From the NCBI GenBank assembly GCA_037129555.1, contig JBAXUS010000005.1, positions 7,086 to 71,085 on the forward strand: a stretch of 64,000 nt of DNA. Reading direction: 5' to 3'. The stretch comes from Planctomycetota bacterium. Its GTDB lineage: Bacteria; Planctomycetota; SZUA-567; H5-PLA8. Under the pieces are notes generated by a model. That model had not been told where the DNA came from, made no database searches, and saw only the letters and a list, made by a program, of their open reading frames with translations. Position numbers and translations under genes: made by a program. Shown piece by piece: positions 5,068 to 40,380 of the stretch (position 1 is the stretch's first letter; each line of letters opens with the position of its first letter).

Positions 5068-5113
5068 GCCTCGGATATGAATGATCGCATTCATATCCGA
5101 GGCCGTTTTTTTT
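5068..5113 (+). terminator. Rho-independent terminator downstream of hisG
   Basis: Perfect 16-bp stem GCCTCGGATATGAATG / CATTCATATCCGAGGC with 4-nt loop, followed by CGTTTTTTTT. Confidence 0.75.
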
Positions 5114-5210: not shown

Positions 5211-6767
5211 ATGCAAGGTTTCAAGAGTTCACACGTTCGATTGGAAACAGAGACCATGAGTTCTTCCGACCCCATCGCAGCACGTCCCCAGATGACCGTA
5301 ACCGGTGAAGCCACCGCGATTCTTCCGGCTCGCAACAACGCCGGGAAACCGATTACCGTGATTGGAACCCAGACCATTCGTGACGGTTTCGATGCGCGGT
5401 GTTTGGAGCAGGCGTTGAATTCGCGCGGGGCTCCGGGCGTGACGGATTTGGTTTTGAATCCGGACGCTCACGTCGGATACGGTGCGCCGATCGGATGCGT
5501 GTTGGTATCGCCGACGCACATTTACCCCGGGCCGGTGGGCGTGGATATCAAGTGCAGCATGAGTTTGTTGCAGCTTGATTTGCCTGCCGATGCGGTGAAA
5601 GACCGGACCACTCGCCGCGCGTTGATCGATGCGATTTTGGAACGGACTCCGACCGGGCCGGGGCAGGGGCAGCGTTCTGCAAAAAAGTGCCGGCAGGTGG
5701 ACGAGGCGGTGGGGCGTCGTGCGATGACCACTGGCGCGTCCGCTGACGTCTGCAACGCGCTGGGAATTCCGACGGAGTGGGCAGACATGTGCGAAGATTC
5801 GTGCCACGTCGCTCACGATGGAACGGCGGATTCGTTGGAACTGCGTCTCGATCAGATTTTGCAGACGCCATTGATCCGCAATTTCAACGACAAGGTCCAG
5901 CAGCTCGGATCGTATGGCGGAGGGAATCACTTCGGCGAATGTGAAGTCGTGACGATCGAGGATAACGCCCGCGCTCGGACGGCGGCGGATGTCTTCGGTA
6001 TGCGCGACAATTGCGTCGCGTTCCTGTCGCACTGCGGATCGCGCGGCTTCGGAAATCTTCTCGCGCAGGGACAGTTCCGCGCGTTGCAGGCGATGTTTGA
6101 ACGCTGGAGCATTCCGTTGCCGGGAGGCGACCGCGAGTTGGTGTATGCGCCGCTTGGAACGGCTGAAGCGGATTGCTATATCGACGACCTGTCGTTGGGA
6201 TCGAACTTCGCGACGGTGAATCACATGCTGATCAACGCGCTGGTGCTCGAAGCGTTTCAGTCCGTGATTCCCGGGACGAAGGGGCAGCTGGTTTATTTTA
6301 TCAGCCACAACATCGCGCGGCAGGAGATCGTCAATAATCAAAAGTGCTGGGTGCATCGGAAGGGAGCGACGCGCGCGTTCCCGGCGGGACATCATTCATT
6401 GAAGGGAACGCGTTACGAAACGACCGGTCATCCGATTTTACTTCCTGGAAATCCGACGGCGGGAAGTGTAGTCATGGTGGCCGATCCCGGCGCGGAGAAG
6501 AGTTGCTACAGCGTCAATCACGGTGCAGGCCGGTGCAAAGGACGTAAGGCTGCGATCCGCGAACTCGATCAGAAGACCGTGGACAAAGAAATGCTTGACC
6601 ACGATATTCTGAGCAACTGCCGCCAGTATCCGAAGGACGAAGCTCCGGCCGCGTACAAGGATTTCGACGAAGTCTTGAAGTCCGTCACGTCGGCAGGATT
6701 GGCCAGCCCCGTTGCGCGGTTGAAGGCGCGGTTTGTGATCAAGGACAGTTCGGGCGCTGATGATTAG
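5211..6767 (+). CDS. rtcB: RNA-splicing ligase RtcB
   Basis: RtcB family motifs (…GGNHFGECEV…, …SVNHGAGRCKGR…). The true start may be the ATG at 5256 (MSSSDPIAARP). No rtcA/rtcR/archease is adjacent. Confidence 0.8.
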   Translation: MQGFKSSHVRLETETMSSSDPIAARPQMTVTGEATAILPARNNAGKPITVIGTQTIRDGFDARCLEQALNSRGAPGVTDLVLNPDAHVGYGAPIGCVLVSPTHIYPGPVGVDIKCSMSLLQLDLPADAVKDRTTRRALIDAILERTPTGPGQGQRSAKKCRQVDEAVGRRAMTTGASADVCNALGIPTEWADMCEDSCHVAHDGTADSLELRLDQILQTPLIRNFNDKVQQLGSYGGGNHFGECEVVTIEDNARARTAADVFGMRDNCVAFLSHCGSRGFGNLLAQGQFRALQAMFERWSIPLPGGDRELVYAPLGTAEADCYIDDLSLGSNFATVNHMLINALVLEAFQSVIPGTKGQLVYFISHNIARQEIVNNQKCWVHRKGATRAFPAGHHSLKGTRYETTGHPILLPGNPTAGSVVMVADPGAEKSCYSVNHGAGRCKGRKAAIRELDQKTVDKEMLDHDILSNCRQYPKDEAPAAYKDFDEVLKSVTSAGLASPVARLKARFVIKDSSGADD

Positions 6768-6775
6768 AACGGACT

Positions 6776-6888
6776 ATTTGTCATTTGTGATTTGTCATTT
6801 GGTATTTGTCATTTGAACAACAACAGCGCCTTCGCATCGGTCGCTGTTAAATGACAAATCACAAATGACAATTGACAAATGACAAATG
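6776..6888. repeat. AT-rich palindromic array: three direct copies of ATTTGTCATTTG (14-bp period) mirrored by three inverted copies (CAAATGACAAAT) around a 13-nt centre
   Basis: Read directly. Left arm is t-ATTTGTCATTTG-tg-ATTTGTCATTTG-gt-ATTTGTCATTTG-aacaacaacagcg. Right arm is cgctgtt-aAATGACAAAT-cac-AAATGACAAt-tga-CAAATGACAAAT-g. It lies between the rtcB stop (6767) and the ftsY start (7040). Confidence 0.85.
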
Positions 6889-7039
6889 CCGTTAAACCGG
6901 TTTGTACTCGAAGCGAGCGTTGCAACGTTCGTTCTGCATCGCGCTTGTTGTTTACGACGTAGCCCCTATTATATAGTAGCGGAAAATGCCGGCGCGGAAC
7001 TCGCACTCGCGCTGAGTCGGACAACAAAGGAGCACTGCC

Positions 7040-8035
7040 GTGGCGTTGGGGAATTTTTTCAAAAAGATCGGGCAGGCGGTCAGCAACACCGTCACGAACA
7101 TCGCGAAGAAGGCCAGCGAGTCGCTCGTGGCGACCGTCAAGCCCATGACGCGCCTGTTGCGCAACGGCTTGGATTTTCTCGTCGGGCGCAAGATCGATGA
7201 CGAAGCCGCAGACCGCATTCGCGACACGCTGATTCAAGCCGACGTCTCGCCACGCATGGCCGAGGACCTCGTCGAAAAACTTCACGCCGCATACAAAGAC
7301 CGCGAAATCAAAAGCACTGACGAAGTGATGCTCTTTTTGAAGGAGCATCTTAAAAAAGAATTCCCGCCGCAGAACAGCGCGTCCAATTGGGCACCGCGTG
7401 GCACACCGACCGTGATCCTGATCGTCGGTGTCAACGGTTCCGGAAAAACAACGTCGATTGCAAAACTAGCGTATCGATTCAAAGCCGAAGGCATGAGTGT
7501 TCTGCTCGCTCCGGCGGACACATTTCGTGCGGCTGCGGTGCAGCAATTGATCACGTGGGCCGACCGCGTGGGTGTCGATTACATTCCGTCGAAACAGGAT
7601 CAAGACCCATCATCGGTCGCGTATCAAGCCGTCGAAAAAGCACTCGCCAAAAATATCGATGTGGTGATCGTCGATACCGCCGGGCGTTTGGACAACAAAA
7701 AGAATCTGATGGATGAGCTTGAAAAAATCACACGCGTCATCCGCAAAAAGCTCCCGAACGCGCCGCACGAAGTTCTGTTGGTCCTCGATGGAAACACCGG
7801 CCAGACCGCAGTGCGACAGGCGAAGAATTTCGAGAAGACGGCGGGTGTGACTGGCTTGATCATCACGAAACTCGATGGCACAGCCAAAGGCGGCGCAGTG
7901 ATTTCAATGCGCGCGGAAGTCGATCTGCCGGTAAAATACATTGGTCTCGGCGAAAAAATGACAGACCTCGAACCGTTCGACGCGGATGTGTTCGTCGATG
8001 AAATTTTCAATTCAGAAGAAACCAAAGAAGGCTGA
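7040..8035 (+). CDS. ftsY: Signal recognition particle receptor FtsY (short form lacking the acidic A domain)
   Basis: N and G domains with GTPase motifs (GVNGSGKTTS, DTAGR, TKLDG). GTG start. Confidence 0.85.
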   Translation: MALGNFFKKIGQAVSNTVTNIAKKASESLVATVKPMTRLLRNGLDFLVGRKIDDEAADRIRDTLIQADVSPRMAEDLVEKLHAAYKDREIKSTDEVMLFLKEHLKKEFPPQNSASNWAPRGTPTVILIVGVNGSGKTTSIAKLAYRFKAEGMSVLLAPADTFRAAAVQQLITWADRVGVDYIPSKQDQDPSSVAYQAVEKALAKNIDVVIVDTAGRLDNKKNLMDELEKITRVIRKKLPNAPHEVLLVLDGNTGQTAVRQAKNFEKTAGVTGLIITKLDGTAKGGAVISMRAEVDLPVKYIGLGEKMTDLEPFDADVFVDEIFNSEETKEG

Positions 8036-9813: not shown

Positions 9814-10284
9814 GTGAGAAGTGAAACAGAGACGATGGATCCCGACTTCATGACCGATGAAATGCTGACCGATAGTCCCTGGTATAAAGGGGGCGTCAAA
9901 TTCACGTGCCAGTCGGGATGCGTCCGCTGCTGCGGCGGAGCGCCGGGGGATGTGTTTGTGACGCGCGAAGAAGTGGACGCCATCGCAGCGTTCAAGGCTA
10001 TTCCGGTTCAAGAATTCGAAGACAAATTTGTGCGGCACTATTATTCATTAAAACGCATGTCGCTGACAGAGCGACGCAACGGTGATTGCATTCTGCTCGA
10101 TTCGGCCAAGGGCTGTTCGGTCTATGATGTCCGCCCGAAACAATGCCGCGATTATCCGTTTTGGCCGGAGGTGATGAAGAGTGTTTTTTCGTGGATTAAG
10201 GAAGCGGACCGTTGCCCCGGGATTCAGGTCGGCGAGGTACACGAGGCTCCGAAGATCGCGGATTTATTGAGAAGTCAACAGTAG
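9814..10284 (+). CDS. YkgJ-family (UPF0153, CxxCxxCC) putative Fe-S/zinc cluster protein
   Basis: Contains CQSGCVRCCGG and a second cluster GCSVYDVRPKQCRDYPFW that matches the family's C-terminal motif. Confidence 0.6.
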   Translation: MRSETETMDPDFMTDEMLTDSPWYKGGVKFTCQSGCVRCCGGAPGDVFVTREEVDAIAAFKAIPVQEFEDKFVRHYYSLKRMSLTERRNGDCILLDSAKGCSVYDVRPKQCRDYPFWPEVMKSVFSWIKEADRCPGIQVGEVHEAPKIADLLRSQQ

Positions 10285-10306: not shown

Positions 10307-11899
10307 GTGAGCGCCATGTCGAACAAACAATCAACCGACTCCGCATCAGATATGAAGGCGAGACACGTGCGCTGTATGTTGACGCTTGCTATGTTTGCGC
10401 TGGCGTGTGGGTCGGGATCTGTTGCACCGACATGGTTTGAGACGCTTTATTTCGCGGTATTGTTTTGTGTTGTGGTGATTGCGTCTGTGGTTGCGGGCGG
10501 GCCAAGGCAGCTCGGGCAAAGCGCGGTGGGGCGAATCATTCTAGTTGGCTGTGCACTGGCCGGAGCATTGGCGCGGAATCCGTCCTACCACTTACCGGCT
10601 GCGGGCATCACAGCGAACAACAGTATAAGTTTTGAAATCATTTCACTCATCGGATGTATTTTGATGTGGGTTCTCGGAGTGAAATTACCATTCCTCGCGA
10701 GGGAGCGTGGGCAATCCGGTGCAGAGAAACTCGAAGCGCTGCTGGTGCTGCCCGGGACGCGGTTACAGCTGACGATTGCGGCGATGATCGCACTGCCGGT
10801 CATGGCGGCGTTGAGCGGAATGCCACTTCAATCCGCGTTGTGGTCCACCGTGTTTGCAGGCGCATTGATGCTGGCGTTACACGGCTTGTTCGCGGTCGCG
10901 TCCAATTCCCGCTGCGCGCAGTTGCTCTGCATTTTGATTTTAATGATGTCAGGATTCACAATTGCCCTGGGACTGAACGCGTATTTCAAATTACGTTCGG
11001 AAGCCGACAGCGCCGTCGTTCACGCATCAACCGGTCGCTTTGATCTTGCGCAAACGAGCTATGAATCAGCGCTGCGTTTGACGCAAGCTTTCCGAGCCAA
11101 TGGTCCGCGTATCGACATGGAAACGCGCCTCGCTCAGCAGTATGAAAAAATGAACAACCCTGTATCTGCATTGGCACATTGGGAAAATGTCGTCACGTTG
11201 ACGAAGGCCGACAAGAATTCATTTCCACCGATTCGTCGAGTACGTTGCGCGATGGGTGACAGTGTTCCACCATGGCGGCTGCTGGTATTTGAAGGCATTC
11301 CTGCCATCGCCAATCCGGACATGGCTCCGGGCGTGATGCGCCTCGTCGACACCGCGCCGGATGTCCGAGCGAAATTGCTCGGCGCGTTGCTCGCGTGGGA
11401 TCAGCAAGCGCCAGACGATGAGCGACGGAAGCGACTCGAAGCGGTGCAAGCCGTCGCTCCCGGCGAGCCGACGTCGTTGAGTTTGTTGAAGCGTATGAAT
11501 GTCCCAACGAAAGACGTGCCGTTGTGGCTTCCGGCGGATTTGATCATCGGCACGGTCCCGACGTATCAATCCGCATTGGGAACCATCGAAGAACTCGGCG
11601 AGGCATGCACGATAGTTTGTTTAAATGCCGGGCGCTGGGAGATGAGTTTGAACGCGTCGGGCACGCCGCTGCATGAAGAGTGGCCGGTTGTCCGTGTCGA
11701 GCTGAACGGCAAGCCGCTCGCTGCGACGCAAGTCAATAAAGCGCTGCCGTACGATGTGCCGTTCACGTTTGATGTGACTCACAATACGATTTTTAAAGTG
11801 CGGATCGTGTTTCAAAACCGGCAGGACGATCTTGAGGACGGACGAGCGGCGCGGCGCGGGTTGAAAATAATGGGAATCAAATTCAACCAGGCGAAGTGA
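10307..11899 (+). CDS. Hypothetical polytopic membrane protein with soluble C-terminal domain
   Basis: 530 aa with about six predicted TM helices in the first 230 aa and a soluble C-terminal half. No recognisable catalytic motif. Confidence 0.45.
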   Translation: MSAMSNKQSTDSASDMKARHVRCMLTLAMFALACGSGSVAPTWFETLYFAVLFCVVVIASVVAGGPRQLGQSAVGRIILVGCALAGALARNPSYHLPAAGITANNSISFEIISLIGCILMWVLGVKLPFLARERGQSGAEKLEALLVLPGTRLQLTIAAMIALPVMAALSGMPLQSALWSTVFAGALMLALHGLFAVASNSRCAQLLCILILMMSGFTIALGLNAYFKLRSEADSAVVHASTGRFDLAQTSYESALRLTQAFRANGPRIDMETRLAQQYEKMNNPVSALAHWENVVTLTKADKNSFPPIRRVRCAMGDSVPPWRLLVFEGIPAIANPDMAPGVMRLVDTAPDVRAKLLGALLAWDQQAPDDERRKRLEAVQAVAPGEPTSLSLLKRMNVPTKDVPLWLPADLIIGTVPTYQSALGTIEELGEACTIVCLNAGRWEMSLNASGTPLHEEWPVVRVELNGKPLAATQVNKALPYDVPFTFDVTHNTIFKVRIVFQNRQDDLEDGRAARRGLKIMGIKFNQAK

Positions 11900-13324: not shown

Positions 13325-13356
13325 TCGAGTGTTAGACGGTTCTTGAAGCTGTCGGT

Positions 13357-13389
13357 AAACGGCCCGTGATACGGGCCGTTTATTTTTTG
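13357..13389 (+). terminator. Rho-independent terminator (overlaps the 3' end of the convergent minus-strand gene)
   Basis: AAACGGCCCG-tgata-CGGGCCGTTT followed by ATTTTTTG. Confidence 0.65.
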
Positions 13390-18360: not shown

Positions 18361-21300
18361 TTATACGAGCGAGTTCGGCGCTCCATCTTTCGATGATGAT
18401 GCGGTGGTCGGGCGGTTGAGAATTTGGGAGTCGCCCCGGGCCAAAATAGGAAGAATGACGGTCATCGTCGCGCCTTTTCCAAGGCCTTCGCTCGCGGCGT
18501 GAATTGTGCCACCGTGCAGCTCGACGAGATGTCGGGCGATGGCCAGGCCGAGGCCCATGCCGCCGTGCCGTCGTGTGCTGCTGGAGTCCTCTTGCGTGAA
18601 GCGTTGAAACATGCTGGGAAGGAATGCGGGATCGATGCCGTTACCATTGTCTTTTATGATCAGATGGACGTGGTTTTCGATGATCGAGACCGAAACTTCT
18701 ATCAGACCACCGATGATCGAAAACTTCACGGCGTTGAACAGGATGTTGAACGCGACTTGATACAATCGATCGGGGTCACCCATAATGCGCGCAGGATGCA
18801 GGAGCAGTTTGAGCTCAACTTTTTTAGCGAGTGCCGTCGGGCGCACAGCATCGACAGATACGGCCACGACCTCGGCCAAATCCAGCATCTGCATCTGTAC
18901 CCGAATTTGTCCGGTGACGATGCGTGACACGTCGAGTAGATCTTCAACCAGTTTAGCTTGTGCTCGGCCATTGCGTAAAATGGAGTCCAGTCCCCGGCGC
19001 AGCGTGGTGGGTTCTGCCGGAGCTTCGGTGAGCAATTGCGCCCAGCCGACGATGGCTGTCAGGGGAGTGCGCAATTCGTGTGAGACCGTGGCGAGGAATT
19101 CATCCTTCAATTGTGTGGCGCGTTCGGCCTCGCTGCGCGCGGATTTTTCGCGTTCGAGCATGTGTTCGCGTTGGGCGTCGATCATCTTGCGGTCGGTAAT
19201 GTCGATGGTCGCGCCGATAGACGATGTTGGGATGCCGTTTTCGCCGACGACAATTTTTCCGTGTGTGGCGAGCCAGCGACACACACCACCGGAGTGGACG
19301 ACACGGTATTCGAAACTGTATTCCTCGGTGGACGTTATCGCGTCCTCGATTCCTTTCAAGAGGACGCATTGGTCGTCGGGATGGACGCGGGTGAGCCAGT
19401 CGTTGAACGTAAACGATACGCGGTCGGACGGCAGGCCAATGAGTTTTCGAAACTCGGGTGAGCATTGAATGACGTCGGTCGAAAGGGTTCGTTCGTGAAT
19501 GCCGATGCCCGCCGTGCGCTGGGCGAGTTCGAAGCGTTCGCGAATCTGCTTTTCATTGGCGAGCAGACGTTCGCGTTCGGCGGCGGATTCTTTTTGCGCG
19601 GTGATGTCCTGCTCGACTCCGATGAGGCGCAGAGGCTTGCCGTTTTCGTTGCGCGTGAATTTGCCTTTGGTGGTGATCCAATGAACGCTTTTGTCGGGCC
19701 AGATGACGCGATATTCAACAGCGTAGTCGTTGCTCGATGATTCAAGCGTGGCGCGCGAATTCTCGGCGACTCGCGGCCAGTCGTCGGGATGAACCATCCG
19801 GGTCCAGTGTTCATACGTCTGCTGAAATTCGCCACGATTGAAGCCGTACAGTGCTTCGAGTTCCGGAGAGAAATGTGTTTCACCAGTGCGAGCGTCCCAT
19901 TCAAACGTGCCGATTTCTGCGGAGCGCTGGGCGAGTTCCAAACGCATGCGCGTTTCACGTTCACTGGTCAGAAGTTTTTCGCGTTCGACCTCCGCCTCTT
20001 TTTGCGGTGTGATGTCCAGATTGACGCCCAGTGCGGACAGCGGAACTCCATTGTCGTCGCGGAATACTTTCGTTTTACTCGACATCCAGTGCACACTTTT
20101 GTCGGGCCACACGATGCGGTACGTGGCACTGTAGACGGGCCGGTCCTCGGTCATCAGGATGCGTGTATTTTCTCGAACCATTAAAATATCGCTGGGATGA
20201 ACGAGTTTTTCCCAGGTGTCGTATGATCCATCAAAATCGCCAGGCTTGAATCCGAACATGGCTTCAAGTTCGGGAGAAATCGTTGAATGGCCCGTTCGGA
20301 AATCCCACTCGAACGTGCCGATGCCGGCGATGGTTTGAGCCAGTTCCAACCGATCGCGCGCCGCTCGCATCGCCTCCGCATCTTTCTTTCGTTGGCTGAC
20401 ATCGCGGACGATGGCGGATAGCAGGCGACGCGCTCCGGCACGGGTTTCGGAGTATGACATTTCGAGCGCGAATTCGGAGCCGTCTTTGCGCAGGCCCGGG
20501 AATTCGATGTGCTTCCAATCGACCGTCTTGAGACCTGTTTCAGAGTAACGCCGCATGCCGTTTTCATGGCGCTCGCGCAGATGTCCTGGCACAAGTGCGG
20601 TCAGATACATGCCGATCAACTCAGCGCGCGGGTATCCGAAAAGGGTCGCGAATGAGGTGTTCGCGTACAGAATTTTACCGCGTTCATCGACAGTGACGAA
20701 TCCGTCCACCGCACTTTCGGCGACGTTGCGGAATTGCTCCTGGCCGTCGCGGACGATGTGCTCGACGAGTTCCTGTTCGGTTACATCACGAAGAACGCCG
20801 ACCAATTTCACCGGTTCGCCGCGATCATTATAGAACGGTTGGCCGTGCGACTCGACCCAGATGATGTCACCATTCAGCCGGATCATGCGGTAGCGCCCGA
20901 CGTAGTTCTTGTGCTCCTCAAGCGCGGTCTTCGTGAGGTGCTTGATCATCGCCACATCGTCGGGATGAACGTAGGTCAGGAAGTTGTCGCGCATTGATAC
21001 ATCTGCTCCGGGAAGCAGTGAATTCATGCGGCTTGAAATCAATTCTCCGGACGACAGTACCCACTCCCAAGGGACTAATTTTCCGACTTCGAGCGCGAGG
21101 TGAAAACGTTCGGCGGAGATGCGTGTTTCCTCTTCGATGCGGCGTTGTTCGGTGACGTCACGAAAAACCAGCACGACAAAGAGGGGTGTATCAGGTGACG
21201 AGGACATGACGGCGGCGCAGTCGTCGATGATTTTGCGGCGACCGTCTTTTGCAATCAGAATGACCGACTCGTCAAAACGGACCGGGGTTTTGTAGCGGAG

Positions 21301-40131: not shown

Positions 40132-40312
40132 TTCGATACCTTGGTTGGTCTGAGAATTTAAAATGATTCGGCGTGTAAATCCGCGCGCAAATTTTATGTC
40201 GCCCTTTCAGGGCTTGGATTTCTATGGGCGACGGACCTAGGGCTGCGCGAGTACGCTTAGCCCTAGGCTATATCATGCCGCCCCATTCGGGGCTGAAAAA
40301 TCGGGGCTGAAA

Positions 40313-40380
40313 AACAACATCAATCCTTTCGGGGCATAAAACAACATCAACCCTTTAAGAACTTATAACAATATCAACCC
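40313..40380. repeat. Three direct copies of a 14-mer AACAA(C/T)ATCAA(C/T)CC at an exact 27-bp period in the hisS upstream region
   Basis: Copies start at 40313, 40340 and 40367. Preceded by a GGGGCTGAAAAA tandem (40289-40314) and a 9-bp-stem palindrome CCTAGGGCT…AGCCCTAGG (40236-40267). Confidence 0.7.

Follow-up and report, generated by a model that had tools for sequence, protein, structure and literature searches.

What is the AT-rich palindromic repeat that lies between rtcB and ftsY in the genome of a Planctomycetota bacterium, and what might it do there? The repeat was analysed within a 64,000-nucleotide stretch of contig JBAXUS010000005.1 (assembly GCA_037129555.1), referred to here as the window. 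It is noncoding, lies between the stop codon of rtcB (6767) and the start of ftsY (7040), and begins 8 nt past the former. We identify the element with high confidence as two intergenic heptanucleotide simple sequence repeat (SSR) arrays in inverted orientation, (ATTTGTC)n-loop-(GACAAAT)n, of the same kind as the cyanobacterial repeats termed STRR (short tandemly repeated repetitive) and the GGGAATC array pairs of Xanthomonas. As for its role, position, stability, positional conservation and preserved pairing suggest a hairpin in the 3′ untranslated region or intercistronic RNA at the end of the rtcB message, which may serve as an exonuclease barrier and/or a processing site; we give this proposal about an even chance of being correct.

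The composition of the element was established by locating each repeat copy. A preliminary description of the locus had reported three exact direct copies of a 12-mer together with three inverted ones, and all six were recovered by position: ATTTGTCATTTG occurs exactly on the + strand at 6776, 6790 and 6804, and its inverted copies lie at 6876-6887 (exact) and at 6848-6859 and 6862-6873 (one mismatch each). Beyond the element, the 64-kb window contains no exact or one-mismatch copy of ATTTGTCATTTG, the best matches (22379 and 60599) requiring two mismatches, and no further inverted repeat of comparable size. The 14-bp period noted earlier describes the spacing of the exact copies correctly but is not the basic repeat. 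Tandem Repeats Finder (TRF) assigns a period of 7 to both arrays, with 5.7 copies of ATTTGTC at 6776-6815 and 5.7 copies of AAATGAC at 6849-6888 (match rates of 81% and 87%), and the apparent 14-bp period arises because unit variants alternate in the left arm (GTC, GTG, GTC, GGT, GTC). The right arm has variants at 6860-6862 (CAC) and 6872-6876 (TTGAC). Similarly, a 13-nt spacer is obtained only when the arms are stretched to 47 nt at 77% complementarity (inverted repeat I1); the arrays themselves lie on opposite strands, 33 nt apart. As read from the sequence, each of the three frames of (GACAAAT)n has both TGA and ATG, and (ATTTGTC)n contains no stop codon. The G+C content is 56% for the window, not the 59% given for the genome, and the element, placed at about 30%, measures 35%, with 28% in the arrays. 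The heptamer unit, and with it membership in the intergenic heptanucleotide (STRR-like) class, is what the preliminary description had overlooked: the element has at least three tandem 7-nt copies at a noncoding site, and its unit recurs as arrays in other genomes.

The two arrays are predicted to pair. The sequence from 6765 to 6900 folds as a single imperfect hairpin of ~50 pairs that is interrupted by three small internal loops and capped by a short G+C stem, in agreement with the ~45-bp imperfect hairpin proposed earlier. The extent first given for the element, 6776-6888, fits the arrays, but the stem reaches beyond them on both sides (Table 1). The free energy (dG) of the RNA fold is −61.0 kcal/mol for the + strand and −60.5 for the − strand (z = −9.8 and −10.0), and 0 of 200 shuffled sequences were as stable, which makes the fold highly non-random. 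As single-stranded DNA, the element also folds stably (dG −41.5, z = −9.4). Within this hairpin, the variant units are not compensated across the arms: GTG is set against GTC, and GGT against GTG. The palindrome also breaks de Bruijn assemblies of short reads, as seen from three independent Logan short-read contigs that end in the left arm at 6785-6786 (the starts of L122, L124 and L125).

Table 1 Features of the hairpin element and its flanks in the window (minimum free energy, MFE).
Feature	Coordinates	Strand	Description
Whole hairpin-forming palindrome	6768..6893	.	Stem base AACGG (6768-6772) paired with CCGTT (6889-6893); MFE structure ~50 pairs
Left arm	6776..6815	+	ATTTGTC ATTTGTG ATTTGTC ATTTGGT ATTTGTC ATTTG; 5.7 units, 28% G+C; direct-repeat family D1
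Central spacer	6816..6848	.	Short G+C stem at the apex (6823-6830 with 6839-6847) around loop 6831-6838
Right arm	6849..6888	+	Inverted (AAATGAC)5.7, with ATTTGTC units in reverse complement; inverted repeats I1-I5
rtcB (503 aa, RNA ligase)	5256..6767	+	Stop TAG 6765-6767; Pfam RtcB, E 3e-97; 503-aa call on identical metagenome contigs
Promoter-like block before ftsY	6937..6972	+	CTTGTT/TTGTTG, 16-17 nt spacer, TATTAT 6967-6972; predicted
ftsY (331 aa)	7040..8035	+	GTG start after AAGGAG; Pfam SRP54/SRP54_N, SRP54 E 5e-78

To see whether the hairpin is retained at this site, metagenome contigs were scanned with RtcB and the closest RtcB proteins were looked up, which gave seven relatives of 81-89% identity. 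In L133 (RtcB 89% identical over 179 aa), a hairpin follows rtcB at bases 590-705 (dG −58, z −6.2), and in L135 and its near-duplicate L136 (RtcB 81%) one is found at ~2110-2255 (dG −69, z −8.4). In all three contigs, the next gene after the hairpin is rtcA. Common to the hairpins of the window, L133 and L135 are ACGG at the left boundary, ATTTGTCATTT at the innermost position and an AACA(ACAAC) motif in the centre, and the central AACAACAAC motif of the window spacer is also present in the L135 hairpin; based on these shared boundary, inner and central motifs, the three are homologous. Their outer units, by comparison, are swapped on both arms: ATTTGTC in the window, ATTTTCC and ATTGTCC in L133, and AATCGAA and AATTGGT in L135. 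Pairing is nevertheless retained, with 46-60 bp in the hairpins of the relatives. Over the outer 21 positions compared between the window and L133, 6 are altered on both sides yet remain Watson-Crick pairs, 12 are unchanged and 3 are irregular, so that 19/21 positions pair in the window and 20/21 in L133, with an arm-to-arm identity between the homologues of 13/21. Since units are exchanged while pairing is kept, it is complementarity that persists and not a motif or recognition sequence. The position of the hairpin after rtcB is kept across 11-19% RtcB divergence and a changed downstream gene, and U-rich tails follow the stem in both L133 and L135 (CUUUUUGGUUUG and GAUUUUGUGAUUUUUAGG).

This placement and conservation are in keeping with a function where the rtcB message ends. 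In the proposed mechanism, transcription of rtcB would continue through the 8 nt beyond its stop codon into the element, and the transcript would fold as an imperfect hairpin of ~50 bp. At the end of the rtcB mRNA, this hairpin would block 3′→5′ exonucleases and/or be cut by a double-strand-specific (RNase III-type) enzyme. The fate of the rtcB mRNA would in this way be uncoupled from that of the downstream gene, which is rtcA in the relatives and a separately promoted ftsY here. The action of the hairpin would be like that of repetitive extragenic palindromic (REP) or STRR intercistronic hairpins and unlike that of a Rho-independent terminator. The arrays themselves would evolve by slippage and replacement of units, with either selection on pairing or templated correction from arm to arm preserving their complementarity.

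Several observations weigh against a role at the message end. An RNA-level function of the hairpin is pure inference, and the window stem has no U-tract behind it. The sense and antisense folds are equally stable, and among five Planctomycetota-lineage hairpins of known transcription direction G-U pairs show no strand preference, so the sense RNA is not singled out over the DNA or the antisense strand. Four relatives at a similar RtcB distance (L132, L134, L137 and L138) have no hairpin, the next gene starting 1-40 nt past rtcB, and the element is therefore dispensable. The RtcB identity matrix of the relatives is star-like (81-85%) and gives no branching order for gain or loss of the hairpin. 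Only one such element is present in 64 kb, so gene ends in this genome are not generally marked in this way. Finally, the two-sided replacement of units could result, without any selection, from replication errors that homogenise the palindrome.

The last point leads to a neutral or selfish origin, in which slippage makes the arrays, intramolecular template switching (quasi-palindrome correction) makes and matches the inverted copy, and the cell derives no function from either. This is the main rival of the RNA-hairpin proposal, and we hold it to be a serious possibility, though less likely than not. It would account for the patchy occurrence of the hairpin, for the fast turnover of units between homologues, for the lack of a preferred strand in fold stability and for the uncompensated variant units of the window hairpin. 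It is also consistent with the wide occurrence of such repeats: among long SSRs, it is heptanucleotides that are most over-represented in many unrelated bacteria, and polymerase slippage has been proposed as the cause (Mrazek et al. 2007, as cited in PMC4679880 and PMC4692102). Such a by-product would not be expected to keep its site after rtcB over the divergence described above or past a change of the downstream gene, nor to lie tight against stop codons in several lineages, as palindromes of this type do. Long palindromes are usually unstable in bacterial DNA, and their retention therefore suggests benefit or active maintenance. In the window lineage, the locus is present on eight metagenome contigs from several samples with 0-1 differences (a single-nucleotide polymorphism) over up to 9 kb, and these copies, being clonal, are uninformative on instability of repeat number.

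The side of the interval to which the hairpin belongs can be judged from ftsY. A block running from GCATCGYGCTTGTYGTTT to CCTATTAT, ~70-100 nt ahead of the start codon, is common to the window and to L128 (FtsY 91% identical), and CCTATTAT is also found upstream of ftsY in L130. Based on this conservation, 6944-6972 is a putative ftsY promoter; the block scores under the threshold of a sigma-70 consensus scan. The FtsY relatives L128-L131 (76-91% identity) have no rtcB upstream and different upstream genes. The block stays with ftsY in relatives that lack an upstream rtcB, and if it is the ftsY promoter, the hairpin would belong to the rtcB side. In the comparison of the spacer across related genomes, as suggested in the preliminary description, the rtcB-side hairpin recurs in two lineages and is missing from four relatives, and the FtsY relatives are informative for the ftsY promoter block only. 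Separately, AACAACAACAGCG in the hairpin centre (6816-6828) is 85% complementary to CGCGCTTGTTGTT in the promoter-like block (6940-6952), 111 nt downstream; in the L135 counterpart, the AACAACAAC motif instead pairs with GTTGTTGTT within the hairpin. The complementarity in the window probably arose by chance or is left over from a deletion at the apex of the hairpin.

A stable stem placed 8 nt past the rtcB stop codon, followed by an apparent promoter of ftsY's own, could also be read as an rtcB terminator, possibly bidirectional, in which a long hairpin acts without a canonical U-tract or aids Rho. The stem-loop directly after the gene and the U-rich runs behind the L133 and L135 homologues resemble a Rho-independent terminator. 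The window stem differs from one in being ~50 bp long, AT-rich and interrupted by internal loops, and in being followed by GUUAAACCGGUUUGU and not by a U-run. A promoter and terminator scan of 6500-7300 returned nothing at the element and 0 terminator-like sites. Canonical terminators are present elsewhere in the same genome. One, at 5068-5113 (+) after hisG and before rtcB, consists of a 16-bp stem (GCCTCGGATATGAATG...CATTCATATCCGAGGC) followed by CGTTTTTTTT and is of the stem+T8 type, and a second is located at 13354-13384; the organism therefore uses ordinary intrinsic terminators. In the relatives, moreover, the hairpin sits between rtcB and rtcA, two genes that are classically co-transcribed and that adjoin or overlap in other relatives. 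For these reasons, the strong bidirectional terminator envisaged in the preliminary description does not stand in its canonical sense, and termination by any related route is unlikely. A promoter within the right arm was considered as well and rejected, the sole TTGACA (6872-6877) having no −10 partner at 16-18 nt.

The heptamer is not confined to this locus. A pattern of 24 specified bases, ATTTGTCATTTGNNATTTGTCATTTG, for which essentially no match is expected by chance, was searched in a collection of species-representative genomes other than the source genome and matched more than 119 genome loci, as single arrays or palindromes. Among the matches listed, most hosts are Nostocales and other filamentous cyanobacteria (Nostoc, Calothrix, Fischerella, Coleofasciculus), joined by Acidobacteriota, Planctomycetota, Anaerolineae, Verrucomicrobia, Nitrospinae, Ignavibacteriae, Omnitrophota, Bacteroidales and Desulfuromonadales-like genomes; the ATTTGTC unit occurs in at least 10 phyla. 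At the matched loci, it is mixed with AATGACC, AATGGCA and AATGACT, and arrays of unrelated heptamers adjoin. The cyanobacterial matches listed are mostly single arrays. In Acidobacteriota, the arrays often come as inverted pairs with a fold like that of the window element (L005, L009, L039, L070, L101, L112 and L113; dG −50 to −71); several of these palindromes start a few nt past a stop codon, and their loops are mutually unrelated. No description of heptamer repeats in Planctomycetes or Acidobacteria was found among the top literature results. In IMG/VR, viral contigs carry the same ATTTGTC pattern, 26 nt long, in 15 stretches (L139-L153), four of them on the 330-kb contig IMGVR_UViG_638276558_000001.

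In the palindromes, the order of the arms is constant. All nine (the window, L005, L008, L009, L039, L070, L101, L112 and L113) read 5′-(ATTTGTC)n..loop..(GACAAAT)n-3′, an order that is independent of the strand read, and the reverse order was found in 0/9. For single ATTTGTC arrays between co-directional open reading frames (ORFs), GACAAAT is on the sense strand in 34 cases vs 15 (L001-L119, crude ORF calls). The occurrence of the unit in so many phyla, the fixed arm order and the re-tiling of both rtcB-hairpin arms in step could be taken as signs that heptamer palindromes are made or maintained by an active polar process, such as a templated or fold-back repeat-adding activity or structure-specific repair; we consider such a process improbable.

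The fixed arm order also hints at some polarity, and the motif is symmetric and present in many copies, as expected for an operator, an iteron array, a nucleoid-protein site or a cruciform recognised by protein. The preliminary description had proposed an operator or iteron array with TGTCA/TGACA cores. The homologues argue against this explanation, as they swap units (for example to ATTTTCC and AATCGAA) and conserve pairing instead of unit sequence. A 7-bp spacing would place successive sites on different faces of the helix, no further copy exists in 64 kb, and no regulator or replication gene is adjacent, the neighbours being hisG, rtcB, ftsY, phosphatidylserine decarboxylase (psd) and a CDP-alcohol phosphatidyltransferase-family gene. 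A centre of 13-33 nt disfavours cruciform extrusion. Recognition at the DNA level is thus very unlikely. The same low probability applies to insertion of a miniature inverted-repeat transposable element (MITE) or a REP-like mobile palindrome downstream of rtcB, a scenario close to the small non-autonomous element suggested at the outset. An AT-rich tract in a 56% G+C genome that is missing from some relatives and at which assemblies break would suit such an insertion. The window holds no second copy and no target-site duplication (flanking direct repeat), however, and the arms are simple tandem heptamers and not unique terminal repeats. Furthermore, the homologues share position and not arm sequence, and the ATTTGTC palindromes of other genomes have unrelated loops. 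A mobile origin is accordingly given very little credence.

Comparison with described systems places the element among heptamer repeats. In filamentous cyanobacteria, 7-bp STRR hairpins occur for example between hupS and hupL, where a function in transcript stability or translational coupling has been suggested (PMC2670836). The window element shares with them tandem 7-nt units, an intergenic or intercistronic site and the capacity to form a hairpin, and ATTTGTC itself is abundant in filamentous cyanobacteria. The differences are that the host is a planctomycete and not a heterocystous cyanobacterium, that a single locus is found in 64 kb instead of a highly repetitive family, and that the window has a long two-arm palindrome where cyanobacterial ATTTGTC arrays are mostly single; in the strict cyanobacterial sense, the element is therefore not an STRR. 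As reportedly given by Mazel et al. (1990), the unit of STRR2 is TTGGTCA; on that sequence, ATTTGTC is one base away from it, and the two units are mixed within one array in L110, L025, L037 and L085.

A parallel in architecture is that of Xanthomonas, in which GGGAATC arrays form 70-75 convergent pairs. From one related species to another, the arrays keep their position and type (single or pair) but differ in length and sequence, and the majority are transcribed (Rehm et al. 2015, PMC4692102). The window element likewise has close heptamer arrays on opposite strands at an intergenic site, in constant order, and with the type kept at the locus in relatives, as shown by the pairs that follow rtcB in L133 and L135/L136. 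In contrast, GGGAATC is G-rich and forms quadruplexes, which ATTTGTC/GACAAAT, without a G-tract, cannot do, and Xanthomonas has ~180 heptamer loci per genome. TAACTGA arrays are distributed over Beggiatoaceae, Cyanobacteria and Bacteroidetes, phylogenetically scattered and with no evident transfer mechanism (MacGregor 2015, PMC4679880). They resemble ATTTGTC arrays as one heptamer repeated in tandem across scattered phyla, in intergenic positions near gene ends and with stop codons in all frames. Nearly all of them, with one inverted exception, are direct repeats immediately ahead of start codons, for which a translational role was proposed, whereas the hairpin described here follows a stop codon.

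The REP elements and bacterial interspersed mosaic elements (BIMEs) of enterobacteria are comparable only in how they would work, as stable intergenic or intercistronic stem-loops that follow a stop codon. REP hairpins shield the mRNA ahead of them against 3′ exonucleases, and in operons they determine differential expression. They are unique-sequence palindromes of ~35 nt that number in the hundreds and are moved by RAYT transposases, and none of these features is seen here.

Further heptamer arrays and palindromes were encountered on the contigs of relatives. In L133, a near-perfect hairpin of ~46 pairs built of heptamers (GGTTTCA AGTTTCA GGTTGAA ...) starts from the rtcA stop codon (1767-1875, dG −65). 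In L131, a (TGAATGN)n/(CATTCAT)n palindrome (10970-11055) lies between the ftsY stop codon and the next gene, a riboflavin-biosynthesis deaminase/reductase with RibD-type Pfam domains. L130 carries a (TTCCACA)n array immediately upstream of ftsY and a (CCTGACC)n array at another site (9897-9920 and 19874-19906). Within a partial ORF upstream of rtcB, L135 (1-170) and L136 (1-150) carry a tandem unit of ~55 nt, each copy palindromic (GCAAGCACTTGCCGATTTGACCATCC...), with miRNA-like Rfam matches.

The genes that flank the element were identified as rtcB and ftsY, as first described, by the Pfam matches given in Table 1. The 503-aa RtcB exactly matches cluster P0121, 'RtcB family protein [Planctomycetota bacterium]', and the exact FtsY protein of the window is present on 6 metagenome contigs. 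The name of this RtcB cluster and those of homologous FtsY proteins assign the host to uncultured Planctomycetota. Farther upstream lies hisG, and farther downstream psd and the CDP-alcohol phosphatidyltransferase-family gene. In L138 (1-4575; RtcB 83% identical), a classical RNA-repair operon is found, with a Ro60/TROVE gene, two YrlA Y-RNA-like genes (RF02553, 75 bits each, 1285-1401 and 1449-1585), rtcB and rtcA. The rtcB of the window genome has no adjacent rsr, Y RNA or rtcA. The possibility that the element is itself a Y RNA or YrlA was rejected, there being no Rfam match at the element and no Ro60 gene beside the window rtcB, while YrlA was readily found in L138. Other known RNA families were rejected as well: a permissive Rfam search of 6400-7300 gave, for the element, only sub-threshold matches to plant and animal miRNA precursors on both strands, which are generic artefacts of long hairpins. 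The same search gave a weak, unrelated match to Mu-gpT-DE inside ftsY. Elsewhere in the window, an Acido-Lenti-1 RNA (Rfam RF01687) is predicted at 40236-40294 (+), with 40.1 bits against a gathering score of 37, and is adjoined by tandem repeats at 40287-40380 that consist of the 14-nt TCGGGGCTGAAAAA and a 27-mer present 2-2.6 times.

Taken alone, the locus is unremarkable: it adds an intergenic heptanucleotide repeat to a class that has been known from cyanobacteria since 1990 and from bacteria at large since 2007. Its contribution is a clean homologous series (the window, L133 and L135) whose members retain the hairpin but have different repeat units on both arms, together with the finding that the ATTTGTC unit and its palindromic form reach Planctomycetota and Acidobacteriota. 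If it is true that such hairpins set mRNA 3′ ends or stability, they would represent a signal for gene ends that escapes standard terminator predictors in these poorly studied phyla.

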